NCBI GenBank assembly: GCA_949300485.1
Contig: CASGEL010000005.1
Span: forward strand, 88,453 to 152,452
Length of the DNA stretch: 64,000 nucleotides
Reading direction: 5' to 3'
Source: an uncultured bacterium
GTDB taxonomy: Bacteria; Cyanobacteriota; Vampirovibrionia; Gastranaerophilales; Gastranaerophilaceae
Shown one piece after another: positions 5,510 through 56,007 of this stretch; the stretch's first letter is position 1; each line of letters begins with the position of its first letter. The position numbers were made by a program, and so were the translations under genes. Under the pieces are notes generated by a model. That model saw only the letters and a program-made list of their open reading frames with translations, did not search any database and was not told the DNA's origin.

Positions 5510-7288
5510 ATGACAAATTCAATTCCAAAAATTGAATCTAATAAGGTTAATTCATTTGGAAATGTTACCTTTAAGAAAAATCCAAATGGATATTGGCTTA
5601 CTGTTCAAAATTCTGCACCTGATACGGTTACACTTGATAGTGAAAAAAAGAATGATTCCGAAAATAATGATATAAAATTAAAGATTATTACACCAGATGA
5701 AGCAAGACAAACAAATAATACAAGGCTTATAGGTATTTCTATTGCAAGTGTTACCGTTTTAACTGCCGCAGGTTTATTTTTCTTGTTAAAAGGTGGGACA
5801 AAGGGCTTATCTAAGAATTTTCAAAGATTAAGAGACTTCTTTGATAGAAAAGCTCAGTCTTCAAAATTAGAAAATTCTGGAGAAATCTCTCCGTTAAATA
5901 GAATTTATATATATTTGGTAAAGGGATTAGATTATTTTCTTAAAAATTTTGAAGCAGTAAATAATTTTGCAACTATAAAAGATTTGGCATTTAAGGAATT
6001 AATGTTTAATAAATTTACTGGGAAGTATACAGGACCTATTCATGATGCTATTACAAGAATGTTTGAGAAAATAGGTCGACAATCAGTAGTAAATTGTTAT
6101 AAAAATACTCTTGCCAGAATGAAGACAACTTCAGCTTTAGCAGGTGAAGCTTCAGAATCTGTTATGAGGGGTAATTCTTATGAAATAGTTGAGATAAATG
6201 GAATTAGGAAAACTAAAGCTCAATGGTTATCTCAGGTAAATGAAATGAATAAACAGCTTTCTGAAAATTATGATAAGTATTTTAGTGAAAAACCTTTACA
6301 GGTGAGATATTATAAATTCAAGAAATCAGTAGAAGGTTTGAAGTCAATTTTTGCTAATTGGAAAGTTTTTTGGTCAAAGGATTTGTGGAGAACATTTTTA
6401 GCTGAATCTGCAGTTGTAAAAGAAAAAACGGCAATTCAAAAGATTGTTCATGCAAACAGACAAGAACTTTCATATTCATTGTTGGATATGGCAAAAGATT
6501 CTGAAGAAGCGATTATGAAGATGACAGAGTTAATCAGTTATAAAGATGTAGATAAAATAAGCAGGCTTCGTAATATCAGGGCTAATATAAAAAGGTATGC
6601 AAAGAATCCTAACGATTTAGAGTTAAGAGGCAAAATTCTTAAAGATATAGATTCCTTATCTGATAAAATCTGGAAATCTATTCCTGATAAGACTATGGAT
6701 AGTACAGTTGCTAATGATTTATTGGTGAATCTTGCTGATTTAAAGGATAAGTTTTTATATTTTAAACAAGGTCAGGTAGAAGATATTTTAGATATATATA
6801 AACGAATTTTGCCTGCTGATGAATATAGAAATATTGAAAAGGCTTATAAATCTACAATTAAATCTTTGGATAAGTCAATAAGAATTGAAACAGAAGAATT
6901 TGTAAGTAAGCTTAGGGATTTAGTGTTGGGTTCTGCTCCGACTGATATTTTGACAATTTTGGGTTCTTTAGGAGTATTGGGTTATCAATTAGGCAAATCT
7001 GATGATAAAGATCAAAGATTATCTATTTCCTTAAAATATGGTATTCCAGCCTTAGCCGGTATCGGAATTTCTCTGTATTGTAATGCTAAATTATATGCAG
7101 GTACAAAATCTTTGATTATAGGTACAGTTTCTTCGTTAGTAGTTAATAAGATAGGAGTTTGGGCAGATCATTTGTTAAAGAAATATAGAGAAAATCAAAA
7201 ATCACAAGCCAATATAAATGTTCAGCAGGAGATAAAGTCTTTCTCTCCTGCTGGATTTGTTACTCAAAATCCTCCAAAAACTGTATAG
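5510..7288 (+). CDS. Hypothetical membrane protein with the recurrent N-terminal module
   Basis: 592 aa. N-terminus MTNSIPKIESNKVNSFGNVTFKK. TM helix LIGISIASVTVLTAAGLFFLL, long helical region, then 3 C-terminal hydrophobic segments. No family recognised. Confidence 0.7.
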   Translation: MTNSIPKIESNKVNSFGNVTFKKNPNGYWLTVQNSAPDTVTLDSEKKNDSENNDIKLKIITPDEARQTNNTRLIGISIASVTVLTAAGLFFLLKGGTKGLSKNFQRLRDFFDRKAQSSKLENSGEISPLNRIYIYLVKGLDYFLKNFEAVNNFATIKDLAFKELMFNKFTGKYTGPIHDAITRMFEKIGRQSVVNCYKNTLARMKTTSALAGEASESVMRGNSYEIVEINGIRKTKAQWLSQVNEMNKQLSENYDKYFSEKPLQVRYYKFKKSVEGLKSIFANWKVFWSKDLWRTFLAESAVVKEKTAIQKIVHANRQELSYSLLDMAKDSEEAIMKMTELISYKDVDKISRLRNIRANIKRYAKNPNDLELRGKILKDIDSLSDKIWKSIPDKTMDSTVANDLLVNLADLKDKFLYFKQGQVEDILDIYKRILPADEYRNIEKAYKSTIKSLDKSIRIETEEFVSKLRDLVLGSAPTDILTILGSLGVLGYQLGKSDDKDQRLSISLKYGIPALAGIGISLYCNAKLYAGTKSLIIGTVSSLVVNKIGVWADHLLKKYRENQKSQANINVQQEIKSFSPAGFVTQNPPKTV

Positions 7289-10470: not shown

Positions 10471-10995
10471 TTATGCAGCTGCCGCCATGTCTGCTTCAAG
10501 AGCAGCTAAACTTTCTGTAAACATAGGTTTGATCTCTGTATGAGGATCCATTTTTGCCATTTTTGAAATTTCTCTGTCTCGGCTGTTTACGAAGAATGAA
10601 GTGATATCTCTTGTTAAAACTTCTTTTGCTCCGTCAAGTGAAACCTCTTTATTTCCTATTTCGTTGATTTTGTTCCAAGCATGTACAATGCCGTCTTTCA
10701 TTTTCATACCAAATTCTTTGATAGCTTCGATACCTTCATAGAATTTGTTACCGAAATCTGTAAGTGATCCTACAAATGTTGAATAGATTCTTTTTGAGCT
10801 TGCAGTTAAATTACCGGTAAAGCTTACATCTTTTTTGTCATTTTTGTTACTTGATTCAAAAACATCTTCTGTTAAGATATTTTTTTGAAAATTTGATGCT
10901 GCAAAAGGGTTACTTGTTCTTGCAACGTTTTGTTCTGTTACGCTCGTATTAAATATACGATGGCTTAATTGATTAATTTTTTCGATTGCTGACAT
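10471..10995 (-). CDS. Hypothetical protein with the recurrent N-terminal module
   Basis: 174 aa. MSAIEKINQ start and DVSFTG at aa 56-61. AGAGG RBS. No signal peptide or TM. Confidence 0.65.
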   Translation of the reverse strand: MSAIEKINQLSHRIFNTSVTEQNVARTSNPFAASNFQKNILTEDVFESSNKNDKKDVSFTGNLTASSKRIYSTFVGSLTDFGNKFYEGIEAIKEFGMKMKDGIVHAWNKINEIGNKEVSLDGAKEVLTRDITSFFVNSRDREISKMAKMDPHTEIKPMFTESLAALEADMAAAA

Positions 10996-17012: not shown

Positions 17013-18893
17013 TTATTGTTTAGTTTTTAGATAGTCAGCTAATGGTGTTTTAACTTCTCCGTTTAGTTTTTCGGAGGACTTTTGCAGGATATCTGATACA
17101 TATTGCATATCATCTGTCCAGATGAAGTTTTTTTCTACATAATCTTTAGCTGCTTTGTAATCTCCGTCTAGCTGAATTTTGATAATTTCTTTTAGCATTT
17201 TTTTGCAGGTTGGAATAACTTTATATGTATGTATATATATTTTTCCGTTATTTAGGATTTCATAAACTCCGTTATCTTTCAGGTATTTACACTGCATAAC
17301 TTGTCTTACCCTATGGGCGACAGACATATCAGGCTTGGCTGATAAAAAATTCTGCATTACAAAAGTAGTCAGAATTCCTTTTCTTTCTTCGTCTGTATAC
17401 ATTCCAAGTTCTGTCAGTTTATCAATAAATGATATTGCCGCAACATCAGCTTTATTTTCTTCAAGAATGTTTCGGTATTCTCCTAATTTTGCTTCATTTT
17501 TATGGGGGCCGAGTGTATGTGCATTTTCATGACCTACTGTAAAATGGTGGCTGGCCTCTTTTGTAATATATTTACTTTGTTCAGGGGTAAGTAATTTTTT
17601 GTAGTTTTCCAATATAAGAGCTTTATTTTCTCTCATTTGTCTGTGGTAAACATTACGTCTGCCGCCGCCAATTGAAAAAGACAGTTTATCCGGGTTTGGA
17701 AGATTTTCTGCAATTGTAATTTTGCCACGATATTCTCCTACTGCACCTGCTACATCTACAAGGTCAACATCAACCATTGTTTGTTTATTATTATTTGTTA
17801 TAATTTGTTCGTATTCATTATTGTATGGCATAAGTTTTGCCAATTCCGGAAGATATTCTTTTGATTTTAGCAAATATTCTGTGCCCTGTTTATTTATAAT
17901 TCCTACTCTCCCACCTAAAAAATCTTTTGAAACAGGGGTGATTCTGTGTTCGTTTAATGCATTTATTAATTTTTTATTTTTAAAAATTGTTTGAGTCATT
18001 TTATCTTCGTAATTTTCTCTGGTAATAGTAAATTCAAGCGGAGTGTCCTGTAATGTTGCCCATTTTTTATCGGCATAAGCATCAAGCATTGGATCTGCTG
18101 TTTTTAGTGCCGCAGCCTGTAATACTAAATAGTCATTAAAATCTTCATTTGTTGAGGTTAAAGATGCTTTTATTAATTCATCTGCAGCTTTTGTGAATTC
18201 TTTTTTAAATCTGTCAGCATAATCTATGCCTTTTAATTCATTTCCGTTTCGAATAACAACCGTTCTTTGGCTGAGAATTTTTTTTATTTCTTCGATTTTC
18301 CCTTCTTCAAGCATTTTGAATAGTATATTATGAAATTCTTCAGTAGATAAATCTCGAGGATATACCCCTCTGCCCGGAGATTGCTGCAATCCTTTGGCAA
18401 GAGATATTTCTTCCATTTTATTGTCTTTTGAAAAAATTCCTTTTTGACCATTAAAAAGTCGCATCGCAGCTTTTGCATCCGGATTGCCTTTGAGAATTTC
18501 TTTATTTAGATAATTTCGGAAAGGTATATTGTTTTCATCATCCAGCTGCAATTCTGCTTCTCCGATATAATATGCAGCTTTTACAAGGTGTTTTAGCGCC
18601 TGTTTATCTCCGGGTTTTAGATTTATGTATTCTTCAGAGTCGGGTGTTAATAGTGTTATTGTAGCGATTTTGTTTGAATTGCTTCTCTGTTTTAATTCGT
18701 CTGAAGATAATCCTAATTCATAATGTTTTCCTTTAAAAGAAATTGCATTTAATGCAGATAAGTTATTTAGTTGGTTGAGGATTACTGTATTATTATTTTT
18801 TGTAATATTTTGATTTTTGTATTGAAATTTATTAGGAATACTGTACTTATGATTATTTTGAATATAGCTTTGATTAATCTTTGATATTTGCAT
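17013..18893 (-). CDS. M49 (DPP III)-like zinc hydrolase, paralog 2, with a 55-aa N-terminal module
   Basis: GHENAHTLGP and ILEENKADVAAI. Collinear with paralog 1 from aa 58 onward. Extra N-terminus runs from MQISKINQSYIQNNHKYSIPNKFQYKNQ to AISFKG. Confidence 0.6.
   Translation of the reverse strand: MQISKINQSYIQNNHKYSIPNKFQYKNQNITKNNNTVILNQLNNLSALNAISFKGKHYELGLSSDELKQRSNSNKIATITLLTPDSEEYINLKPGDKQALKHLVKAAYYIGEAELQLDDENNIPFRNYLNKEILKGNPDAKAAMRLFNGQKGIFSKDNKMEEISLAKGLQQSPGRGVYPRDLSTEEFHNILFKMLEEGKIEEIKKILSQRTVVIRNGNELKGIDYADRFKKEFTKAADELIKASLTSTNEDFNDYLVLQAAALKTADPMLDAYADKKWATLQDTPLEFTITRENYEDKMTQTIFKNKKLINALNEHRITPVSKDFLGGRVGIINKQGTEYLLKSKEYLPELAKLMPYNNEYEQIITNNNKQTMVDVDLVDVAGAVGEYRGKITIAENLPNPDKLSFSIGGGRRNVYHRQMRENKALILENYKKLLTPEQSKYITKEASHHFTVGHENAHTLGPHKNEAKLGEYRNILEENKADVAAISFIDKLTELGMYTDEERKGILTTFVMQNFLSAKPDMSVAHRVRQVMQCKYLKDNGVYEILNNGKIYIHTYKVIPTCKKMLKEIIKIQLDGDYKAAKDYVEKNFIWTDDMQYVSDILQKSSEKLNGEVKTPLADYLKTKQ
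18002..18110 (-). repeat. High-identity core segment shared with 16185-16293
   Basis: See the partner segment. Synonymous sites are also conserved, unlike the rest of the two genes. Confidence 0.8.
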
Positions 18894-33429: not shown

Positions 33430-33978
33430 TTATACCCCCGTTTTCATAAGAAAAAACAAATAGATCTTTCCCCAGGTGTTTGGCGGAGTTACCCCGTTTG
33501 TGTCAACAAAGAATTCTATATATGTGCCGCTTAGTCTTTCGTTTTGATCTGTTGCTTTCCACCAGACAGCCGTTCCGTTAAGCAGTACTATTTTATAATA
33601 TCTGTTATCTGTTGCATAGTTTATATCGTGCTTTTGTCCGTTTTTTCGTAAATATGTTTTTTTGATACAGTAATTGTTGGAGTCAGATACTCCGCAATCT
33701 GTTGCAATTTTAAGGGAATATTTTAATTTTTCTGCAATATCTTCTGCTCCTTTTGCGGACCAGTATTCTGTTGTCCAGCTTGAGGCATCACCGTATTCAT
33801 CTTCACTCATTCTTATTGCCTGCGCAATTATAGATTGTGTTTCTTTTAATTGGTTTACAGTTCTTTTTTCATAGTATCTTGTCATAAGATTGGGGATAGT
33901 CATAGCCGCAACAATTCCTATAATACCAAGAGTTATAAGAACTTCGGCAAGAGTGAATGCTTGTTGTGATATTTTCAT
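33430..33978 (-). CDS. Prepilin-type N-terminal cleavage/methylation domain protein (type IV pilin or pseudopilin-like)
   Basis: MKISQQAFTLAEVLITLGIIGIVAAMTIPNL is a class III signal with Glu at +5. Confidence 0.8.
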   Translation of the reverse strand: MKISQQAFTLAEVLITLGIIGIVAAMTIPNLMTRYYEKRTVNQLKETQSIIAQAIRMSEDEYGDASSWTTEYWSAKGAEDIAEKLKYSLKIATDCGVSDSNNYCIKKTYLRKNGQKHDINYATDNRYYKIVLLNGTAVWWKATDQNERLSGTYIEFFVDTNGVTPPNTWGKIYLFFLMKTGV

Positions 33979-34347: not shown

Positions 34348-35421
34348 TTATAATAATTGTTTATATAAATCAATTTGTTTTTGGGTTAATTTTGCAGGAA
34401 GTACTATTTTTATTTTTGCGTTAAGGTTTCCGTAGCCTCCTGATTTTTTAGGTAGTCCCAGATTTTTCAGCCTTAGCGTTTTCCCGCTTGAGGTCATAGG
34501 CGGAATTTTTATACCTATAGTTCCATGCAGAGTTTCTATATCTTTTTTGCAACCTAAGACAGCTTCTGGTGGAGTTATTTCAACCTCTTTTGTTAAATCT
34601 GAGCCTTTTATTTCGTATTCCGGATCTTTAGGAGTTATAATTAAGTATAAATCTCCTTTTTGACCGTAGGCATCAGTCTTTCCTTCTCCTTTTAGCCTTA
34701 CTTTTTGACCTTCTTTGATTTCTTTCGGAAGTTTTACTTTTATGGATTTATTTTCGTTTATAATTCCTGTTCCTCCGCAGGCGCTGCAATATCCTCCGCC
34801 TCCAGGACACTGTGTACATTTTCTCATATCATTGAATTTAACTGTAATTGGGGTGTCTGAGAATAAGTCTTTAGCTGTAACATTTAATGTTTTTGTAACA
34901 TCTAAATCTTCTGTTTTTCTGCTTGTGGATGAAGTTCTTGAGGCTTTTGGGTTTGTATAAGCTTGTCTAGTATAGGCTTGTTGACCTATATCTCCAAAAT
35001 CCCCAAAATCAAATCCTGAAAATCCGCTGCGTGAGGTTCTGCCTGATGCTCCGGCACCCATCATATCACCGAACAAAGAACTGAAAAAGTCAGAAAATCC
35101 GCCCATATCTTGTCCGTTAAAGTTGAATTGATATGTGCCGCCTTGGCCTCCGCCAAAGTTAAAATGTTCAAATCCAGGAGGCGGTGTATAATCTGCTCCT
35201 CCTTGCCAGCCAGAACCTAAACTGTCATATCTTTGACGTTTTTGTTTGTCGCCTAAGACTTCGTATGCTTCATTTATTTCTTTGAATTTTTCTTCTGCTT
35301 CCTTGGTTTTATTAACATCCGGATGGTATTTGCGTGCAAGTTTTCTGTAGGCTGATTTGATTTCAGCTTCTGTTGCTTCTCGTTTTACACCCAGAATTTC
35401 ATAGTAATCTTTGTACTTCAT
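34348..35421 (-). CDS. DnaJ-class J-domain chaperone with a reduced zinc-finger region
   Basis: YYEILGV...KYHPDVNK J-domain and a G/F-rich linker. Only two adjacent CxxCxGxG motifs ([16 protein letters not shown]). DnaJ C-terminal domains are present. Confidence 0.85.
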
Positions 35422-35430
35422 AATAATAAA

Positions 35431-35471
35431 ATCTCCTATTCTAATGATAATATAAAATAGGAGATTTTTTT
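35431..35471 (-). terminator. Hairpin downstream of 35502-35912
   Basis: atctcctatt / aataggagat, a 10-bp stem with a 15-nt loop. Both flanks are T/A-rich. Confidence 0.55.
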
Positions 35472-35501: not shown

Positions 35502-35912
35502 TTATAATGCTGAAAGTTTTTGGGACATTTCAGATATATCTTTTTTAATATTATTTAGGGTGTTATTGTTGTTTAAATATTCAAGAATTTCTTTTCTGTT
35601 TCCCATAGCAAGCGGTCTTTTGATTTCTGTTGCCATAGCAGGATGAAGAAGGGATATTTCTATCATATGTTGGGCTTTATTTGTTTCATCTTGAGAAATA
35701 GTCAATGCTGCACCTTTATACGGTAACTTTTTATTCTTTGAATATAGCCCTTCATTTATCGGTCTGTAATAATGCGTGTCAGAAATTTCAAATTCTGCAC
35801 GAGATTTTATTTTATGCAACAATGATTCTAAGTCTTGAATGTTATCCATATACTTTTTATTAATTTTGTTAGTTGTACGTTTTAAAATGCTTACTTGATT
35901 AAATCTTATCAT
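35502..35912 (-). CDS. Hypothetical 136-aa protein, operon partner of the RelA/SpoT-like gene
   Basis: GAGG RBS. Starts 18 nt after the stop of 35930-37387. No recognised motif. Confidence 0.6.
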   Translation of the reverse strand: MIRFNQVSILKRTTNKINKKYMDNIQDLESLLHKIKSRAEFEISDTHYYRPINEGLYSKNKKLPYKGAALTISQDETNKAQHMIEISLLHPAMATEIKRPLAMGNRKEILEYLNNNNTLNNIKKDISEMSQKLSAL

Positions 35913-35929
35913 ATTTACCTCTATTATGT

Positions 35930-37387
35930 CTACATTGTATAATCTATACTTGAGTTTTCATATTCTATGTGCGGTACAAATGTTTCCATTTTTTTTGCCT
36001 GGTCGGCTTCATTTAAATCATGGAGTCTTTTCATATTTTCTTCTGATAGAATTTTATCAAATTTTTCCGGAAGCTGAGGTTTTGTTCTTTTTATTCCTAG
36101 CTCTAAATCCCTGTAATAATCATAGCAGTCGCTTTTGTATTTATCATAGTCAGGCATATCTTTTTTGGGAGATTTTTGGATTGCAGTTTTAAAATCGTCA
36201 AAAATTTCGCCAAGAGTATTTTTCTCAAGAGTTGCATCGTATGCAATATGTTCATATTCTGCAAACTGTCCGGAACCTCTTATTTGAATTTCGGCCAAAG
36301 AGCCGTCACTTAGAACTGCATTTATTTGAGCTGTCGTGTAACCTGATTTTTTTATCGCATCTTGTGCAGTTTGCGGTAATTCATTAATACCGTATTTTGA
36401 AAAATCAATATCTTCAGAGCAGGTAATTATATCAAATTTTTGACCTGTGGCTAATTGCATTTTTTCAAATTCGCGAATTTGTCTGTCAGAAAAATATGCA
36501 ACTCCGTCTTTCCCTTTATAATTGTTGATTTCTGTCATTCTAAGCGGTTTTATCTTTGGATTGGCTTTTAATTCTTCAAGAATATCTTTTCGAATTCCTG
36601 CTTTTTCTAATTTTTCCAATGTAGTCATATTGTTATCCAAAGCATATTTCATATTTGATAGTAGAAATTTTCTTACGACAGGATCGGATTGTTTTTCTGC
36701 CAGAGCTATTTTTATAGGTTTGGCCAGTTTTTTTGCCGCTTCTAATTCAATATCAGTCAGTTTTTCATTGTTAAACAATCTTTGGACAAGTGTTTTTTCT
36801 GATTGTGTCAGAGGTTTGCCTTCGATTTTAATTGTATTTAAAGTTTCAATTATATCTTTTGTTGTTAAGTCTTTTAACTGAATTCTGCCCCCTATTGCAT
36901 CCTGAATTATCTGTCTTGCATCTTCATCTGTTTTTATAGTTTTATTTAATTTCGGAATCATTCTTTCTAATTTTGAGAATACGGAATTTGCTCCTTTTGT
37001 TCGTACAGAAACTTCAAATCCGTTAAAAACTTCTGATAATTCTTTTCGTGCAGATTCTTCAACAGCTTTATATCTGTTTGCCAATCGCACAGATATGTTC
37101 CCCAGCTCGCCTAATTGAACAGGATTTTTGGCCTGTAACTGTTTTCCGTCTATTGGTATAAACGGTCTATCCATATGCATTGTTTCAGGTCTTATTGGCA
37201 TTGTAATATCAGGTTTTATCCTGTATTGAACCACACCTGTATCTCCGATTTTGAAAACTTCTTTCCCGTTTGGAGTGAATGATAATAATGCCTTAGCTTC
37301 TGTTTTTATCGGATTGCTGGCAGCTTTTACAGAATCTGCAGTAATTAATCTTCCTGCGGTTTTAATAATTTTAGGAAGTAGTCCCAT
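35930..37387 (-). CDS. RelA/SpoT-homolog synthetase-like nucleotide pyrophosphokinase (SAS-type, no HD hydrolase domain) with a large insertion
   Basis: R129-x-K-x3-S-x3-K (VRTKGANSVFSKL), D163-x2-G-x-R (DAIGGRI), GY at 349-350, EIQIRG at 366-371, EYEHIAYD. About 180 aa lie between the DxxGxR and GY/EIQIR motifs. Confidence 0.6.
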   Translation of the reverse strand: MGLLPKIIKTAGRLITADSVKAASNPIKTEAKALLSFTPNGKEVFKIGDTGVVQYRIKPDITMPIRPETMHMDRPFIPIDGKQLQAKNPVQLGELGNISVRLANRYKAVEESARKELSEVFNGFEVSVRTKGANSVFSKLERMIPKLNKTIKTDEDARQIIQDAIGGRIQLKDLTTKDIIETLNTIKIEGKPLTQSEKTLVQRLFNNEKLTDIELEAAKKLAKPIKIALAEKQSDPVVRKFLLSNMKYALDNNMTTLEKLEKAGIRKDILEELKANPKIKPLRMTEINNYKGKDGVAYFSDRQIREFEKMQLATGQKFDIITCSEDIDFSKYGINELPQTAQDAIKKSGYTTAQINAVLSDGSLAEIQIRGSGQFAEYEHIAYDATLEKNTLGEIFDDFKTAIQKSPKKDMPDYDKYKSDCYDYYRDLELGIKRTKPQLPEKFDKILSEENMKRLHDLNEADQAKKMETFVPHIEYENSSIDYTM

Positions 37388-37460
37388 ATTTTTCCTTTTT
37401 CTTAATTTCCCCTATATTTTAATAAAGGTTAAATTTTTTGAAAAAGTGCTAAAATAAAAA

Positions 37461-37488
37461 AAGATATTACATTTTTGTAATATCTTTT
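37461..37488 (-). terminator. Rho-independent terminator of the small wHTH gene
   Basis: aaagatattaca tttt tgtaatatcttt. Followed on the minus-strand RNA by UUUUAUUUUA. Confidence 0.7.
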
Positions 37489-37519
37489 TACCAATTATAA
37501 GTTATATTCAACTATAATC

Positions 37520-37744
37520 TTATTTTAAGCTTACTTTAACAGCAGGTCCTTTTTGAGAAATTTCAACTTTGTTTTCTCTAGCTAACCAGCCTAAACCTAA
37601 ATCTGCAAAGTTGCCTTTTAGATCTAATTCTTTTTTCATTTTAGCAAAAGAAGTTGTACCGTTAGTGTGTAGGTAGTTGTAGATTTCTCCTGCTGAAAAT
37701 CCGATTTGTTCTTCTAAAGTTAAGTTTGATTTTTTTGTTGCCAT
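37520..37744 (-). CDS. Small winged-helix protein (DUF2582-like)
   Basis: Start set at the ATG after GGAGGG (M25 of the track ORF). 74 aa, with LTLEEQIGFSAGEIYNYL...LGWLARENKV. Confidence 0.6.
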   Translation of the reverse strand: MATKKSNLTLEEQIGFSAGEIYNYLHTNGTTSFAKMKKELDLKGNFADLGLGWLARENKVEISQKGPAVKVSLK

Positions 37745-37890
37745 GATCTTTTTCCCTCCGTTGATTGATTGTTTGTATGACACTTTTTTATTTTCGATAT
37801 TCAAATGATAGTGCATTTTTGAATATTAGACAATCATTTCAATAATGTAGTTTTGGCGAAATTTTATGATAAAATACGTTATAAGGAGTA

Positions 37891-40800
37891 TTGAATTTGT
37901 TAATTGACGGCAGCATAACCTCAAATAAAACAGAATTTTTGATTGAAAAATATTCTGAGCTTATAAACAATGGTGTTAAGACTTCTGAAATTTTGGTTAT
38001 AGTACAAAATTCTACTTTAAAAAATTCTTTTATAGATGAAGTTTTTAAGAAAATTGAAGTATCTTGTATTGAAAAATTGCAGGTCTATTCGTTCTACTCT
38101 CTTGTTTATAACGCAGTTTCGGATAATTGGGCTTTTTTAGAAGATAGAAATATTTTTGATAATCCTGTTATTTTACCTAATTTGGCCGGTTTAGAGGTTT
38201 CTCAGTTTATATTAAAAGATATCCTAAATGAAGTTAAATTCAGAGGATATAATTCGAGAATGTCATTATTACATCAAATTTTCAGAAGATATTCTCTGAT
38301 AGTTCAGAATAACCTTACTCAAAGTGACATAAATAAAAGGGCAGAAATTTTAAAGGAAGGATTTTCTGAGGATGCGAGTCTCGTAATTAAGAAGTTCTTG
38401 AAAAAAACGCTTGAATTAAGAGATTTTGACTATTTACGTCAGTGTCTAATGTTCAATTTTATATATAAAAATACTGATTATTTTAAAAATATTAAGTATT
38501 TACTTGTTGATGATGCTGATGAATGCACTCCTATTTGTATCGATTTTATTGAGTATTTATCAAAACAGCTAAAAGATGTTTATATTGCAGTAGATCCTTT
38601 AGGTTCAAGCAGGTGCGGTTATTTAAGTGCTGATAAAAATAATTTCGAAAAGCTAAAGAGTATATTTAAAAATTCTCAGATTATAAAACTTGAGGATTCG
38701 AGTTCGGTTGATGCTTTAAATCTTTATAAAAATTCCTGTTATGATGAAAATAATATCTTAAATATGTTTGAGTATGACTCTTATTCAAAACGTTCAAATA
38801 TGGCTGATGCAGCATTGGATAAAGTAATTAACCTTTTAAAAAACAAGGTGCTTCCTTGTGAAATTGCTGTTATATCTCCTGTTGTAGATGATATGCTGAA
38901 ATTTACACTGAGAGAAAATTTAAAAGCAAACGTCAACTTACTATATTTATCAGGGAGTGAAAAACTTATTCAAAACAGGCTTGTACAAGCTGCCATAACT
39001 GTTTTGAAATTAAATACCGAATTAAAAAATTCATTATCCGAGTTTGATATCAGAGTTATTTTGTCAGAATTTTTGCAAATCCCATTGAAATACTGTGCGG
39101 AGATTCTTTCAGAATTTAATACTTCTAAAGAACTTATTCCTTATGAATTTAAGGATGAAACTTATACAGAAAAATACTGCAAATTTTTAACGCTTGTTGA
39201 AAGATTAGCTGTTTCTGAAGAAAAGTTGTCTGAGCAAATTATTTTAATATATAAGGAACTATCTTCTTTGGGAGTAGTAAAATCTTCTGAGTTAAATAAA
39301 TTTAATTTCTTTGTAAAAGAAATTGTTGATTTTGAAAATATATTCGGACAAAATTTTAATCGCAGGAAATCCGAAATTATTTTGCAGATAGAAAATTCTA
39401 TTATTGCTGAAAATCCTTATTCAGTATTAGAAATTAAAAAAAATGATCTTGTTGTTTCAACTCCGCAAAAGATAATAGATAATCATATTAAAACAAAATA
39501 TCAAATTTGGCTTGATATATCAAGCTCAGAATGGATAAAATCTGATACGGGACCTTTATATAATGCTTGGGTTTTCCAAAAAGATTGGGATAAACCTGAT
39601 TATACTATTGAAGATAATATAAATTTATCAAAAGATAAAACCGCCAGAGTTTTAAGGAAACTTACCTTGTGTGCTTCAGATAAGATTTATTGTTATTCAA
39701 GTTTGTTTGATTCTAACGGTATTGAAAATTACGGCGGTATTGAACCTTATATTATTGTGCATTCTCAGGATGAAAAAAATAAAGAGGATGATAAGCCGCA
39801 ATTTAAAATTGTACCTCGTCCGGATCAAAAACCGGTTTTAGATTATAAAAACGGTTATATGGGAATTTCTGCAGTGCCTGGTGCTGGTAAAACAACTATA
39901 TTGCTTGCTTTAATTATCAATTTACTTGAAAGGGGAATAAATCCTGAAAATATTTTTGTTTTAACTTATATGGATTCAGCTGCAAGAAATTTTAGAGAAA
40001 GAATTAAAAACGTTCGCAAAAATTCTTCTAAACTTCCGAATATAAGTACAATCCATGGACTTGCATTACGAATATTGAAAGAAAACGGAAATTACGAGAA
40101 ACTGGGCTTATCTTCTGATTTTGAAATTTGTGATGATTCCCAAAGGGGCAGAATTTTGCGTGAAATTTCTTCTAAATTGAAAATAGAATCTAAAACTGCT
40201 GAAGAATTTGACAGAGCAGTTTCTGTTTTTAAAATTGGCGGAGGCAGTTTTGAGTCTTCAATTTCTGATATTAAATTGAAGAAGTTTAAAGCCTTTTATG
40301 ATGCGTATACAGATAACTTAAAAGAGTACAATCTAATTGACTATGATGATATGCTGACAGGCTCTGTAAAAATCTTGAAGGAAAATCCTGATATTTTGGC
40401 TCATTATCAAAATATTTGTGAGTATATTATCGAAGATGAGGCTCAAGATTCTTCTTCTGTTCAGCAGGAATTGATTTCTCTACTATCAGGAAAGCATAAA
40501 AATATTATAAGATGCGGAGATGTTAACCAATCAATCACAGCAACATTTTCAAATGCTGATGTTGATGGGTTTAGAAATTTCATTACGGAAAATAATAATG
40601 TTTCAATGAATTGTTCTCAGCGATGTACAAAAGATGTTTGGACGTTAGCAAATAAGTTGGTGGAAAAGGCTTCTTTAAATTCCGAGAGCAAGAATTCCTT
40701 TTTTAAAATGTATATGCAGCCTGTTGAGGGTAAAAATCCGCAAAGCATAAATGCTGTTACTCCGATGATTTTTGAGTCAGTTATTGATGAAAAAAATTAT

Positions 40801-41772
40801 GTTTTAAAATCAATAACAGAAATCCTATCAAAGCATCCTGATTATACTGTTGGTGTATTATTGAGAAATAATTTTCAGGTTGCTTCCTGGCAGAATTTGA
40901 TTGAAAACAGTGGCTTAAAAGTTATTACAAGAAATCAGTGTCTTGAACAGAAGTCTATTTTTAGGGTTATATTTGCGGTATTAAAAATGGTTCTATCTCC
41001 TTTTGATAATGAAGTTATAGCCTCCAATTACGAAATACTTGCAGATTCGGGATTTTATAAACGGGGGTTGGATAATGAAATAAGAAAATATGAAAATCCG
41101 TTTATTCAGATTAATGCTGATTATATTGATAATTCTGTTTTAGAACAATTTTATTGGGATTTGAACTATTGGATTTCACTTTGCTATCTTCCGCCGAATG
41201 AGCTGGCTGTTAAAATAGGTATGGGATTTTTTAAGAATGATATTGAAAAATCAAATATACATCTGATTTCAACTCTTATAAAACGAATTTGCATAAGGAA
41301 TAATTCTTTAGAATATGCAGTTTCACGTCTTGCGGAATTATCTAAAAAACCAAACTTAAGCGGATTTAAGTTTTTTTCTGAGGAAGATGAAGATGATAAA
41401 TCTTATTTGGCAGGTAAAGTGCAGATTATGACAATGCACAAATCAAAAGGGGATGAGTTTGATGTTGTGTTTATTCCTGAATTAACCGAAAGAAACCTGC
41501 CGCTCACTATAAATTCTATCAGTCTGAAGTCTTCTGAGTTTATAGAATCAGTAAAAAAACTTAATCCTGATTATAAACCTAAATCAGAATATGAACTTAA
41601 GCAGGAAATTCTATCAGAGAATTTGCGGCTTTTGTATGTTGCTATAACAAGAGCAAAGCAGAAATTATATATAACAGTCAGTAAAAAATCAAAAAATCGT
41701 TTTAATAAAGAACAAAAGCAGGGGATAAATGTTATATTTGAACAGTTGTTGGGGGTAGTTGAAAATGTTTAG
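37891..41772 (+). CDS. Fused AddB-like (degenerate P-loop) plus UvrD/AddA-like SF1 helicase, no nuclease domain
   Basis: N-half: GSITSNKT instead of a Walker A, and LLVDDADE. C-half: AVPGAGKTT, YIIEDEAQDSS, VQIMTMHKSKGDEFDVVFIPEL, RLLYVAITRAKQKLYI. Confidence 0.75.
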   Translation: MNLLIDGSITSNKTEFLIEKYSELINNGVKTSEILVIVQNSTLKNSFIDEVFKKIEVSCIEKLQVYSFYSLVYNAVSDNWAFLEDRNIFDNPVILPNLAGLEVSQFILKDILNEVKFRGYNSRMSLLHQIFRRYSLIVQNNLTQSDINKRAEILKEGFSEDASLVIKKFLKKTLELRDFDYLRQCLMFNFIYKNTDYFKNIKYLLVDDADECTPICIDFIEYLSKQLKDVYIAVDPLGSSRCGYLSADKNNFEKLKSIFKNSQIIKLEDSSSVDALNLYKNSCYDENNILNMFEYDSYSKRSNMADAALDKVINLLKNKVLPCEIAVISPVVDDMLKFTLRENLKANVNLLYLSGSEKLIQNRLVQAAITVLKLNTELKNSLSEFDIRVILSEFLQIPLKYCAEILSEFNTSKELIPYEFKDETYTEKYCKFLTLVERLAVSEEKLSEQIILIYKELSSLGVVKSSELNKFNFFVKEIVDFENIFGQNFNRRKSEIILQIENSIIAENPYSVLEIKKNDLVVSTPQKIIDNHIKTKYQIWLDISSSEWIKSDTGPLYNAWVFQKDWDKPDYTIEDNINLSKDKTARVLRKLTLCASDKIYCYSSLFDSNGIENYGGIEPYIIVHSQDEKNKEDDKPQFKIVPRPDQKPVLDYKNGYMGISAVPGAGKTTILLALIINLLERGINPENIFVLTYMDSAARNFRERIKNVRKNSSKLPNISTIHGLALRILKENGNYEKLGLSSDFEICDDSQRGRILREISSKLKIESKTAEEFDRAVSVFKIGGGSFESSISDIKLKKFKAFYDAYTDNLKEYNLIDYDDMLTGSVKILKENPDILAHYQNICEYIIEDEAQDSSSVQQELISLLSGKHKNIIRCGDVNQSITATFSNADVDGFRNFITENNNVSMNCSQRCTKDVWTLANKLVEKASLNSESKNSFFKMYMQPVEGKNPQSINAVTPMIFESVIDEKNYVLKSITEILSKHPDYTVGVLLRNNFQVASWQNLIENSGLKVITRNQCLEQKSIFRVIFAVLKMVLSPFDNEVIASNYEILADSGFYKRGLDNEIRKYENPFIQINADYIDNSVLEQFYWDLNYWISLCYLPPNELAVKIGMGFFKNDIEKSNIHLISTLIKRICIRNNSLEYAVSRLAELSKKPNLSGFKFFSEEDEDDKSYLAGKVQIMTMHKSKGDEFDVVFIPELTERNLPLTINSISLKSSEFIESVKKLNPDYKPKSEYELKQEILSENLRLLYVAITRAKQKLYITVSKKSKNRFNKEQKQGINVIFEQLLGVVENV

Positions 41773-42415
41773 TATTTATTCGCCTAATATGTTAAAAACT
41801 TACGAACAGTGTCCGAGAAAGTTTTTTTACAGATATATTTCAAATCTCAATGTTCCTGTTTCATCACTGCCTTTTGAGAAGGGTAAAAAAATACATGCTC
41901 TTGCAAACTACTTTTTAAAAGGGGTAAATATTTCCCGAATAGAAACTGCTTTGGCTCCTGCTGAAGCTGAAATTTGGCATACCCTGCTTGATAATCCGTT
42001 TTTTCAAAAAGATTGTCTTCAGTCAGAATATCAACTGTCTTGTAAAATTGGTGAATTTTGGATAGGCGGAAGGCTTGATGCTGTAGTTCATGATTATGAA
42101 CAGTATTATATTTTGGATTATAAAACTGGTTCTGTTCCTAAAAATCCCGAGTATGATTATCAAACAATGATTTATTTATTGAGTATGGATAAATTATTGA
42201 ACGGTAAGTATGAGTCGCTTTCTTTTGTTTATATAAATCTTAAAGAAAAAAATAATTATGTAATTGAATTTAATGATAAATTAAGACTTGATTATCAGGA
42301 ACGAATTATAAATATCTGCGACAAAATAAATACAGATACGATATATCAGGGCATAAGTTCTAATTGTAAATCGTGTGAATTTGTAAATATCTGCGATTCT
42401 TCCTGTGTTATTTAG
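41759..42415 (+). CDS. PD-(D/E)XK nuclease with Cas4/AddB-type Fe-S cysteines
   Basis: C18 (EQCPRKFFYRY), GGRLDAV...ILDYKTG (D...D-x-K), YQTMIY, and C-terminal CKSCEFVNIC (CX2CX5C). Overlaps the helicase stop by 14 nt. Confidence 0.75.
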   Translation: MKMFSIYSPNMLKTYEQCPRKFFYRYISNLNVPVSSLPFEKGKKIHALANYFLKGVNISRIETALAPAEAEIWHTLLDNPFFQKDCLQSEYQLSCKIGEFWIGGRLDAVVHDYEQYYILDYKTGSVPKNPEYDYQTMIYLLSMDKLLNGKYESLSFVYINLKEKNNYVIEFNDKLRLDYQERIINICDKINTDTIYQGISSNCKSCEFVNICDSSCVI

Positions 42416-43223
42416 TGAAATCTTTCATTTTATTACCTGTTTGGTTTTGGTAGTTCATACAGGTTGCATAATAAAAGTATGTTAGTCTAAGGTCTTTATT
42501 TTCAAATTTGATTTTATTATTCAGTTTAAATTTTTTATTTTTAAAATAGTTTTCGGAATGAATTTCTTTATCATTATCAGAATAGATACCGAGGTATGCT
42601 AAGTTTGCTGCACCATTTTTGCAGTCACATATATATAATTCTTTTGTGTATTCAAAATTTAATTTATCAGTGCTTATAGGGTGTATCAGTTGAAAGTGTG
42701 CGTCTTTGTATACTTTAAACCAGCCTAGTGCATAATTGTTTTTGAAGTTTAAGCTGTCCGGGTATAGATATATAGTTTCTTTAGAAATATTTATATTCTC
42801 ATTTTTTATAAGAATATTTTTGATTTCATTTTTTCTTTTTATTGAAAGCTTTATCTTTTTGGGTGAGTTCAGGTATTGAGATTTTATAAGTATTTTAAAA
42901 TTGGTTATGTTGTCTTTGAGTTTTTCATTATTTATTTCTAATATTATATCCCCTATTTTTAGTCCGGCTTTTTGTGCATTAGAATCAGGTATGATTTTAA
43001 TTATTTTTTGTTTTTTATCTTTAGTTCCTATTGATGTATATCCGAAAGATACAGGGTGTTCTTTGTACTTATCTCTGTATTTTACAGATTGATATAAGTC
43101 ATTGTATGAAAATCCTGTATTATCATTAAATAAATATTTTGGAGTTATTAAATAGAATATGCTTGCTGTAAATGTAATTAGCAAAATTGATATTGCAATT
43201 AAGATAATAGTATTTATTTTCAT
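42408..43223 (-). CDS. Membrane-anchored PDZ domain protein
   Basis: N-terminal TM. PDZ segment DSNAQKAGLKIGDIILEINNEKL. Confidence 0.6.
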   Translation of the reverse strand: MKINTIILIAISILLITFTASIFYLITPKYLFNDNTGFSYNDLYQSVKYRDKYKEHPVSFGYTSIGTKDKKQKIIKIIPDSNAQKAGLKIGDIILEINNEKLKDNITNFKILIKSQYLNSPKKIKLSIKRKNEIKNILIKNENINISKETIYLYPDSLNFKNNYALGWFKVYKDAHFQLIHPISTDKLNFEYTKELYICDCKNGAANLAYLGIYSDNDKEIHSENYFKNKKFKLNNKIKFENKDLRLTYFYYATCMNYQNQTGNKMKDFTK

Positions 43224-43251
43224 AAATCATGAACTCCATAATTTTATATAT

Positions 43252-43785
43252 TTATTGTAATATTATCAGTGTTTTGTCTAAAACGGCATATTTTAGTGCT
43301 TTACAGATATTAATGAACCAGTCTTTATATTTCTTGAGTTTCCAGTTTGCTTTAGCTCGTAATTGATAAAATATTTGCATTTGGGTATTTAGTTTTTCTT
43401 CAGGCAGTTTTGGATAATCATTTAATATTTGATTGGTATTTATAATTACCTGTTTATAATTACCTGTGTTATCGTAGGTCAATGCTAAGCACCAGTATGC
43501 TCGATTATCAACAGTTGTAAGTTTTTGACATACATCTATAGCTTTATCATATTGCTGTAATGTTATATAGCATCCTGCAAGATTAAGTCTTTCTTCTATA
43601 TTTAAATTTGATTTTTTTTCTAATTCAATCATTTTTGTTTTTTGTTGAGTTAGAATTTGTTCAGGCATTTTGGTAATTGGTCTGTTGTAATATTTATCGA
43701 GTGAAAAATATATTCCAAATCCTGCGGCAATAAAAATAAGAATAATCACAGTAGTTATTGTAATTGTTTTATAAATACTTTTCAT
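43252..43785 (-). CDS. Membrane-anchored TPR-like protein
   Basis: N-terminal TM (ITITTVIILIFIAAGFGIYF). TPR-like helices (LNLAGCYITLQQYDKAIDVCQKL, YWCLALTYDNTGNYKQ). Confidence 0.55.
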   Translation of the reverse strand: MKSIYKTITITTVIILIFIAAGFGIYFSLDKYYNRPITKMPEQILTQQKTKMIELEKKSNLNIEERLNLAGCYITLQQYDKAIDVCQKLTTVDNRAYWCLALTYDNTGNYKQVIINTNQILNDYPKLPEEKLNTQMQIFYQLRAKANWKLKKYKDWFINICKALKYAVLDKTLIILQ

Positions 43786-54594: not shown

Positions 54595-56007
54595 TTATGA
54601 TTCGAAGCGTGAAGAGTGCCTTAAAACTTTTCTATTTTCAATTATGTGACCGTTTTTATCTATATATTGTTCTTTATGGTTATTATCGGCGTGCCCACAT
54701 TTTTTCAATTTTTTAGCCGTTTGTTTTATGCTTGATTGCTCTGCTTTTTCTTTTATTTCAGGGATTTTTTGTTCAAAATTATCTAAATCGATTTTTATTT
54801 TAGATGATCGTAATTCAAATTCCTTTTTAAGTACAAGAATATAGTCAGACAAGGTGGAGGCATCTTTTAACCTTCCGTATTTTGTCCATTTTTCAGCTAT
54901 ATAAATAAGTTTGTTAATTTGTTTTTGTATGTATTGCGGAATATTTGGATCTTGGGTAGTTATAAAATCATCAATCGGAGTGTCTGATTTAAGTTCATTC
55001 AGTCTTTTGGATGTCAGTATGCTTACTTTGTATCGGCTTAGATTTTCTGCTGTTTTGTCTCCATTTTGTCTTGCTTTTTCTTCAGCTCGAAAAGCTTTTT
55101 GCGGGTGAATGTGATCATCCGTTCCTACAGACGGTATAAGTAGCCTTAATCCTATTTCTTCAGAGTCTCTTGGAATTTTAACGATTTCGCCTTTTGCATT
55201 ATGAACAACTTTGTATGGCTGAGAGTATTTTACAATAAAAGCATGTGCAGAATCTGATGATTGCGGTAATTTGGCTGCAACATCAAGCATTTTTTGTTTT
55301 ATTTTATTGTTTGATATTTGAATACCCCTTAAAGCAATGATAAATTCCTTTCTTCCGAAACGATCTTCAGGCAGAGGGTCTGTAGTAAATATTTTGTTAT
55401 ATGAATTTTGGATAAGTTTTCTGATTTCCAGAAATTCTTTTTTAGGTAAAACTTTACTTATTTGGCTTATTTTATTTAAGACTTTACTTTGGTGATTTAT
55501 TAATGATTGTTCTGCATTTGGGTATTTTAACCGAATAAGTTCTTGAAGAGTTAAATCGGGATTTTTTTTAGATAAAGTTTCAAGTAAGGCAAATACTTCT
55601 TTTTCTATCGGAAACATATTATCACGATACTCTTTAAGATATTTTATTGCAATGGAACTCTTTTTGTTTAGAACTTTCAAATCTTTTAATAAGTTGATAT
55701 CTTCTGATGTGATTAGTTCTTTGTCAGAATACGCATCAGGGATACCTTCTCTTAAAAGTTTTTTAAAAAATAATTTTGTAAATTTTTGTTCAAAAGTATT
55801 GCTAATATTAGCAATACCGCCTAGAAAACTAACGTTTCTGTGCGGTATTTGACTATTTAAACTGGTTTTTTGTGTCGTTTTGGTAAATGTGTCATGATTT
55901 AAAGGCCTTAAATTATATATTGCACTTTGTTTTGTGTAATATCTGTTGCTATTGTTTATGTTATAATACTGATTTGTATTATATTGTTGAATTTTTGAAA
56001 TTAGCAT
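54595..56007 (-). CDS. Hypothetical protein with the recurrent N-terminal module and a Cas9-type HNH nuclease motif
   Basis: MLISKIQQYN...NVSFLGG (aa 1-64). GTDDHIHPQKAF...YKVSILTSKRLNELKSDTP (aa 295-343; compare DVDHIVPQSF...NKVLTRSDKNRGKSDNVP). Confidence 0.5.
   Translation of the reverse strand: MLISKIQQYNTNQYYNINNSNRYYTKQSAIYNLRPLNHDTFTKTTQKTSLNSQIPHRNVSFLGGIANISNTFEQKFTKLFFKKLLREGIPDAYSDKELITSEDINLLKDLKVLNKKSSIAIKYLKEYRDNMFPIEKEVFALLETLSKKNPDLTLQELIRLKYPNAEQSLINHQSKVLNKISQISKVLPKKEFLEIRKLIQNSYNKIFTTDPLPEDRFGRKEFIIALRGIQISNNKIKQKMLDVAAKLPQSSDSAHAFIVKYSQPYKVVHNAKGEIVKIPRDSEEIGLRLLIPSVGTDDHIHPQKAFRAEEKARQNGDKTAENLSRYKVSILTSKRLNELKSDTPIDDFITTQDPNIPQYIQKQINKLIYIAEKWTKYGRLKDASTLSDYILVLKKEFELRSSKIKIDLDNFEQKIPEIKEKAEQSSIKQTAKKLKKCGHADNNHKEQYIDKNGHIIENRKVLRHSSRFES

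Follow-up and report, generated by a model that had tools for sequence, protein, structure and literature searches.

Enzymes of the RelA/SpoT homologue (RSH) type are stress regulators in some cases and toxins in others, the toxins producing (p)ppApp or (p)ppGpp or blocking tRNA. Here we describe a pair of genes, one coding for a divergent RSH-like protein of 485 amino acids (aa) and the other for a protein of 136 aa, on the minus strand of a 64,000-nt stretch of DNA from an uncultured bacterium of the Gastranaerophilales (contig CASGEL010000005.1, positions 88,453 to 152,452; the whole stretch is called the window hereafter). The G+C content of the window is ∼32%, and its nearest genomic relatives are metagenome-assembled genomes from the gut, of which one carries the label Candidatus Gastranaerophilales. 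We favour, with some confidence but far from certainty, the explanation that the larger protein is an ATP-dependent 3'-pyrophosphokinase, harmful when free, that is held in check by its co-translated partner and is used either alone or as the cargo of large carrier proteins.

Among the described systems, the toxSAS enzymes (FaRel, FaRel2, PhRel and CapRel; Jimmy et al. 2020, PMC7229694; PMC11782079) resemble this locus in that a single synthetase fold stands alone, with neither hydrolase nor regulatory domains, in that the set of donor-ATP and G-loop residues is complete, and in that a small partner gene is tightly linked. However, the 485-aa protein holds ∼150 extra residues inside the catalytic domain and lies below Pfam detection, its partner belongs to none of the known toxSAS antitoxin or immunity classes (pZFD, Tis1, Panacea, SAH) according to library, PDB-sequence and fold searches, its domain is also found on giant carriers, and its locus is syntenic and core-like instead of patchy. 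A C-terminal RSH-type domain that alternates with other modules and has a small gene adjacent to it, protective in the described cases, is likewise common to this family and to Tas1/Apk1-Tis1, the exported alarmone synthetases (Ahmad et al. 2019; 2025, PMC12691689) and the RSH cargo of polymorphic toxins (Zhang et al. 2012, PMC3482391). Unlike in those systems, none of PAAR/Rhs, LXG/WXG, MuF, XopAD, DUF4157 or a Sec signal is found here, no known domain is recognised in the carrier bodies, the hosts belong to the Gastranaerophilales or to other uncultured bacteria of the gut, the partner represents a new family, and the window protein stands alone with just a disordered leader of 48 aa. RelP and RelQ provide the best structural matches (6fgj, 5dec, 5f2v) and have the catalytic strands and motifs in common with the 485-aa protein, whereas the latter has two insertions in the core, an obligate partner gene and different C-terminal helices. 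It also appears to differ on the acceptor side: what we take to be the positions binding the acceptor 5'-phosphate in (p)ppGpp synthetases are apparently replaced by the invariant residues N289 and Y290, on strand beta3, and Q354, presumably standing where the usual His sits. The principle itself, that RSH toxins have protective partners and that RSH domains are carried as cargo by polymorphic toxins, is already known. What is new is a clade lying below annotation thresholds, the large insertion within its domain, the partner family, the giant carriers devoid of known domains and the host lineage. Our literature search found no paper linking Melainabacteria to RSH enzymes or to toxin systems.

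The RSH-like gene occupies positions 35930-37387, its stop-to-stop frame leaving just eight additional codons upstream, and the gene of the putative immunity or neutralising protein follows at 35502..35912, both on the minus strand, where an earlier reading made from the letters alone (the sequence-only reading) had placed them. All RSH synthetase motifs listed in that reading are present at the indices given there, namely R129, K131, S135 and K139, D163, G166 and R168, G349-Y350, E366-I-Q-I-R370, and EYEHIAY at 377, and R142 is a further motif residue. In an alignment of 34 homologs, with 33-72% identity to the window protein, R129, K131, S135, K139, D163, R168, Y350 and Q368 are invariant, and G166, G349, E366 and R370 are nearly invariant. 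Because the motif columns are kept across homologs at this level of identity, the pattern goes beyond chance. The catalytic residues map one-to-one onto R64, K66, S70, K74, R77, D90, G93, R95, Y128, E145 and Q147 of FaRel2, which are reported to take part in the binding of donor ATP and Mg2+ and in stacking on the acceptor base (PMC11782079). The ratio of nonsynonymous to synonymous substitution rates (dN/dS) of ∼0.12, approximate because dS is near saturation, corresponds to purifying selection and indicates that the 485-aa gene is real.

The Pfam scan detected no HD, TGS or ACT domain in the 485-aa protein, as the sequence-only reading had stated, and no match to the RelA_SpoT family PF04607 even at E<=1. 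Scans of this protein against NCBIfam, PADLOC and PHROGs gave nothing meaningful, and neither phmmer nor family profiles, including a profile of the core alone from which the insertions had been removed, found an RSH enzyme among PDB sequences. The search for PF04607, which had been proposed as a check, failed on this protein itself and gave matches at the level of the family: 11 of the 34 close members match PF04607 on their own (best E 6.1e-6), and a distant relative (P0123), which aligns to residues 262-466 of the window protein, scores 34.6 bits against a Pfam threshold of 27.

The structure prediction and Foldseek search, proposed at the same time, point in the same direction. A template-free AlphaFold model of the 485-aa protein was obtained with a mean predicted local distance difference test (pLDDT) of 86.5 and a predicted template modelling score (pTM) of 0.82, and RSH synthetases made up nearly all of its best matches in the PDB (RelP, SaEAS, RelQ, Rel N-terminal domains and Tas1). 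RelP was matched with a probability of 0.98 and a template modelling (TM) score of 0.50 on the target, and the exported synthetase SaEAS with a TM score of 0.54. The E-values, 0.04-1, are modest because the insertions interrupt the catalytic core. The top viral match was a phage 'RelA/SpoT' protein (E 1.5e-4). The family-level Pfam matches, the invariant catalytic residues and the Foldseek matches together bear out the assignment to the RelA/SpoT synthetases, and the 485-aa protein is most likely a highly divergent RelA/SpoT-fold (toxSYNTH-like) pyrophosphokinase, this activity being predicted from fold and catalytic residues.

In the model, the catalytic core is preceded by a leader, residues 1-48 (37244..37387, minus strand), which is basic (isoelectric point, pI, 10.1) and predicted to be disordered (pLDDT <50). 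The leader is the least conserved part of the protein (48-53% identity, dN 0.36), it is missing in P0072, P0074 and P0080-P0083 and variable across the family, and it is a possible targeting signal. Residues 49-175 (36863..37243, minus strand) form an N-terminal beta-hairpin and helices, followed by strands beta1-beta2 of the catalytic core, and contain the predicted donor-ATP site with R129, K131, S135, K139, R142, D163, G166 and R168. Between beta2 and beta3, residues 176-280 (36548..36862, minus strand) constitute a basic helical insertion (pI 9.4) that has no counterpart in canonical small alarmone synthetases, with helices at 176-185, 195-205, 212-251, 257-262 and 267-275 modelled at pLDDT >90. 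The remainder, residues 281-485 with the stop codon (35930..36547, minus strand), comprises beta3 with N289 and Y290, a second insertion at ∼293-343, the G-loop with G349-Y350, beta4-beta5 with E366-x-Q368-x-R370, EYEHIAYD and the C-terminal helices, and it is the section most strongly common to the giant carrier proteins. The half containing the G-loop is acidic (pI 4.9), whereas the N-terminal half and the insertion are basic. The distance from D163 to G349 is 186 aa and that from D163 to Y350 is 187 aa, compared with 38 aa between D90 and Y128 of FaRel2 (PMC11782079). Thus, the separation of the motif halves by ∼180 aa of helical sequence, noted in the sequence-only reading, is upheld as a distance; the net insertion comes to ∼150 aa, distributed in the model over the helical block at ∼176-280 and the smaller block at ∼293-343. 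The median spacing from the D to the GY motif is 186 aa in the stand-alone family, and it ranges from 81 to 202 aa in the giant carriers.

The two open reading frames (ORFs) are separated by a spacer of 17 nt, which contains the AGAGG ribosome-binding site of the partner (35918..35922, minus strand) 5 nt ahead of its ATG, in agreement with the tight linkage and the separate ribosome-binding site noticed earlier. The AlphaFold model of the 136-aa protein (pLDDT 81, pTM 0.73) consists of a basic disordered tail (residues 1-21), a helix, a four-stranded sheet and two helices. A fold search gave a weak match to the Whirly/PUR-alpha/MRP class (probability 0.97, E 0.012, TM 0.3-0.4), so the predicted fold weakly resembles single-strand nucleic-acid binders, which we regard as a lead and not as a fold assignment. 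No match to the partner was found in Pfam, NCBIfam, PADLOC or PHROGs, nor among PDB sequences, and an indexed search for its homologs returned only eight.

The sequence-only reading had set beforehand that absence of the partner from orthologous loci would speak against a functional pair. Instead, an ORF of 128-157 aa homologous to the partner lies directly downstream of every RSH-like gene inspected. It is present in six loci (L001-L006), and also in four others (L007-L010) in which identity of the RSH-like protein falls to 34% and the flanks are wholly different. Downstream of a distant relative of 848 aa (locus L011), a partner homolog was recognised by hhalign (E 5e-5). Overall, the partner is immediately downstream in 16 of 16 informative loci (the window and L001-L015), with gaps of 8-81 nt. 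In a six-frame scan, domain and partner were found together in these 16 loci, and the partner was found in neither of two loci lacking the domain, one further locus being uninformative because of a contig end. The dN/dS of the partner gene is 0.07-0.13, again an approximate value with dS near saturation. No carrier was found with a partner-like domain fused in.

An exhaustive search for the family yielded 284 representatives, and its hidden Markov model (HMM) matches 92 proteins of 600-7,567 aa. In 63 of these 92 carriers the domain ends no more than 60 aa from the C-terminus, and the catalytic signatures are widely retained, RxKxxxSxxxK in 84 and GY..Q..ExQxR in 91. The next gene downstream is a homolog of the partner gene (orf136) in four giant carriers, of 1,124, 1,756, 2,233 and 7,567 aa, as well as in the 848-aa relative at L011, with hmmsearch E-values for these homologs from 2.6e-33 to 1.9e-6. 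Moreover, the N-terminal ∼700 aa of P0238, the carrier of 1,756 aa, recur, at 48-57% identity, in proteins that have other C-terminal parts. This body is joined to an RSH-like domain in P0125, to a calpain-type protease above the Pfam threshold and no RSH domain in P0254, and to other, non-RSH tails of no recognised type in P0256 and P0257. Neither of the two body-sharing loci without RSH domain that were examined, one of them coding for the calpain-type protease, contains an orf136 homolog. Three defining features of polymorphic toxins come together here: the enzymatic module is C-terminal, it can be exchanged on a common body, and it has a small downstream gene of its own. RelA/SpoT-like domains are an established cargo of such toxins, as they are of effectors (PMC3482391, PMC12691689). 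The C-terminal position and the module exchange are properties of the relatives, the window protein itself being a stand-alone cassette, and none of the other ORFs of the window is related to the giant carriers.

The giant proteins deserve mention in their own right. Measuring 1,200-7,500 aa (P0238, P0256 and P0254 at L012, L017 and L018, and others), they are almost without recognisable domains, and they share N-terminal bodies as well as short conserved starts, either '..KI..YI...P.LK......SIM...G.LT..E..W' or the EF-hand-like 'F.IFD.D..G'. At the C-terminus, the RSH-like domain, the calpain-type protease and domains of no recognised type take turns. They look like an uncharacterised family of modular effectors.

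In the explanation that we favour, the enzyme would transfer pyrophosphate from donor ATP to the 3'-OH of an acceptor. Candidate acceptors are purine nucleotides, from which (p)ppApp or (p)ppGpp would arise, and the 3' ends of RNA or tRNA. By analogy with FaRel2 and its small positive patch on the acceptor side, an RNA or tRNA acceptor seems about as plausible as a nucleotide. The 136-aa protein, made from the same transcript, would be the cognate neutralising partner, of the immunity or antitoxin type, and would presumably bind the enzyme and block one of its substrate sites in the producing cell. The pair would then represent the stand-alone version of the cargo-plus-immunity cassette found at the end of giant proteins resembling polymorphic toxins, and the disordered 48-aa leader may replace the giant carriers as a targeting signal. 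We favour an effector-immunity relationship over a classical toxin-antitoxin system because the same domain and partner end giant modular proteins.

Several observations weigh against this explanation. No signal peptide or transmembrane segment was found in the 485-aa protein (its highest 19-residue hydropathy is 0.65, and its leader is basic and disordered) or in the carriers, nor was the Sec signal or secretion-system recognition domain of exported alarmone synthetases recognised in the 485-aa protein. No known trafficking or secretion-system domain was detected in the window protein or in the sampled carriers with Pfam and PHROGs, and there are no secretion genes near the pair. The partner is a basic protein for which no counterpart was found among the known immunity or antitoxin families. 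The domain is internal in 29 of the 92 carriers, and the module-swap comparison relies on just two control loci without RSH domain. Comparison with L001 showed no positive selection (dN/dS) in the pair. Finally, the stand-alone pair lies, in many species, at a conserved and apparently vertically inherited chromosomal position among housekeeping genes, in the order helicase, winged-helix gene, RSH, partner, dnaJ and glycine-cleavage genes, a housekeeping-type position that is unusual for toxin cassettes.

This core-genome position would be expected of a physiological enzyme, that is, a Gastranaerophilales-specific synthetase of an alarmone or another nucleotide signal, with the 136-aa protein as its regulatory subunit and a tie to the chaperone and stress response through dnaJ. 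We consider this unlikely. The dnaJ-type co-chaperone gene (34348..35421, minus strand; DnaJ and DnaJ_C domains) is a conserved neighbour that we do not count as part of the system. L001-L005 and L007-L009 all show the order RSH-partner-dnaJ, L009 despite a different upstream flank, and apparently vertical inheritance, purifying selection and the lack of a mobile-element or secretion context all agree with a physiological role. Further chaperone links, namely the hairpin over the dnaJ Shine-Dalgarno sequence, a J domain in the 7,567-aa carrier and clpB at L011, fit it too. However, the dnaJ link is absent in L010-L015. A physiological enzyme also leaves unexplained why dozens of giants, each with a partner gene of its own, end in this domain and why it alternates with a protease on a shared body. 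Moreover, the residues presumed to hold the acceptor 5'-phosphate in (p)ppGpp synthetases are apparently replaced, as described above, by N289, Y290 and Q354.

That the pair is a type II toxSAS toxin-antitoxin system of the classical kind, or an abortive-infection module, acting on the producer itself, for instance by pyrophosphorylation of tRNA upon loss of the antitoxin or upon a phage trigger, seems to us rather improbable. The tight bicistronic layout between terminator-like hairpins is what such a module would show, and toxSAS pairs with non-homologous small antitoxins are known (PMC7229694). The basic tail and the weak nucleic-acid-binder fold of the partner are as expected of an autoregulating antitoxin, and the basic N-terminal half and insertion, set against the acidic G-loop half, loosely recall the positive patch of the tRNA-targeting FaRel2. 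Fusion to carriers of up to 7,567 aa, however, is not toxin-antitoxin-like, and the stable syntenic inheritance contrasts with the usual patchy distribution of toxin-antitoxin systems. In addition, there was no PADLOC match, and protein-mode searches of annotated phage and plasmid collections returned no match.

Effector chaperones are typically acidic, and a small alpha/beta architecture is within their common size range. That the 136-aa protein is not an inhibitor but an export chaperone or adaptor, or a cofactor presenting the substrate to an RSH-like effector, is very unlikely: strict co-occurrence suits any obligate partner, size and architecture fall within the range of effector chaperones and the weak Whirly/PUR-like match could mean RNA binding, but the protein is basic, no positive evidence supports such a role, and it always lies downstream of the toxin-like domain, the usual position of an immunity gene (PMC3482391).

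We also give a small chance to a departure of another kind, in which the stand-alone pair would be more than a simple weapon, either as a toxin-derived enzyme kept in the core genome of Gastranaerophilales with a new acceptor in a chaperone-linked stress circuit, or with its leader as an undescribed export signal. One possibility is that the basic helical insertion and the partner resembling nucleic-acid binders direct pyrophosphorylation to an RNA 3' end or to an unusual nucleotide. Another is that a loose 'M-x-I-x-K-I ... S-F-x-G' leader marks the substrates of an export pathway in this uncultured lineage, the present enzyme included. The latter possibility relates to the claim of the sequence-only reading that the N-terminus belongs to a recurrent module. 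As a homologous module it did not hold, since neither tblastn nor a profile HMM detected it elsewhere in the window, but a loose two-part pattern, common to four or five other unannotated ORFs, was recovered. It consists of M-x-[ILV]-x-K-I, 20-50 polar residues and then [ILV]-[ST]-F-x-G, and its bearers have no Pfam domain. A regular expression for this pattern, written after the bearer proteins had been seen, matches 6 of 58 ORFs versus 0.4 in shuffles. The two-part leader may be a lineage-specific sorting or export leader. ORFs with the pattern are found at 5510-7288(+), 10471-10995(-), 17013-18893(-), 54595-56007(-) and 35930-37387(-), the last being the RSH-like gene, and also at L011 (8001-10547).

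The pair is bracketed by two strong hairpins, one downstream of the 136-aa ORF and one upstream of the pair, consistent with the two-gene unit proposed earlier. The upstream hairpin (37458..37489, minus strand; -12.8 kcal/mol, z -5.5) has a stem of 14 bp, after which comes a U-run (UUUUUUUAUUU), and it was missed by the terminator scan because the stem is AT-rich. This terminator-like element would insulate the pair from transcription of the upstream DUF2582 winged-helix gene. Between it and the RSH gene, a consensus scan found a promoter-like site, TTTTCA-17-TAAAAT (37416..37444, minus strand; a pattern match only), and a ribosome-binding site, AAGGAAA, directly precedes the ATG of the RSH gene. 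The second hairpin, with 16 bp (35428..35468, minus strand; -17.9 kcal/mol, z -6.0), lies between the partner and dnaJ and is followed by a U-rich tract. Its 3' arm includes the dnaJ Shine-Dalgarno sequence (AGGAG), and it is kept with compensatory changes in L001-L003, L005, L007 and L009. An Rfam scan of the locus, this hairpin included, gave no match. The hairpin could be a terminator, a translational (e.g. temperature-sensitive) control element of dnaJ, or both. Its conserved loop, TATATTATCAT, resembles a -10 element.

Comparison of the window with L001 at the DNA level showed 99-100% identity from 43400 to ∼37500. Where the RSH gene begins, at its 5' end, identity has fallen to 64-66%, with ∼80% as the baseline. 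The alignment indicates that ∼37500-43400 is a tract of recent recombination or transfer, whose break falls exactly between the upstream gene and the RSH gene, in the region with the promoter-like site. Rapid or diversifying selection, which the low identity of the RSH gene to L001 beside flanks of 99-100% could have suggested, was rejected in view of this tract, the ∼80% baseline and the purifying dN/dS. With dN/dS values of 0.03 for dnaJ and gcvT (approximate as well, dS being near saturation), the RSH and partner genes are constrained but evolve several-fold faster than their housekeeping neighbours. The tract covers genes for an AddA-like helicase, a PD-(D/E)XK nuclease-like protein and the winged-helix protein.

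Other features of the neighbourhood were noted. The DUF2582 winged-helix ORF (37520-37816, minus strand, 98 aa) probably starts at an internal ATG at 37744 (MATKKSN...), which is preceded by GGAGGG, its orthologs in L007 and L008 being called at 74-75 aa. In the interval from the glycine-cleavage genes to dnaJ, a gene at 33430-33978 (minus strand) codes for a pseudopilin-like protein of 182 aa that bears a prepilin-type N-terminal methylation motif (PF07963). L001 and L002 have this gene; the more distant loci lack it. Chaperone elements recur around the family: the J domain mentioned above (45.5 bits) occupies residues 1365-1416 of the 7,567-aa carrier P0095 (L013, 340-23043), and clpB adjoins the L011 pair, around which clpX, clpP and the gene of trigger factor are also found.

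The clade described here is invisible to standard annotation and is used, both alone and as the cargo of giant proteins, in uncultured gut bacteria. Its characterisation could uncover a new specificity for the acceptor or a novel mode of neutralising RSH-type enzymes, and for research on RSH enzymes the clade could serve as a natural test case in which a conserved pyrophosphokinase core is redirected by a domain inserted into it. It could also open a first way into the study of protein-based antagonism, or of the delivery of effectors, among the Melainabacteria of the gut.

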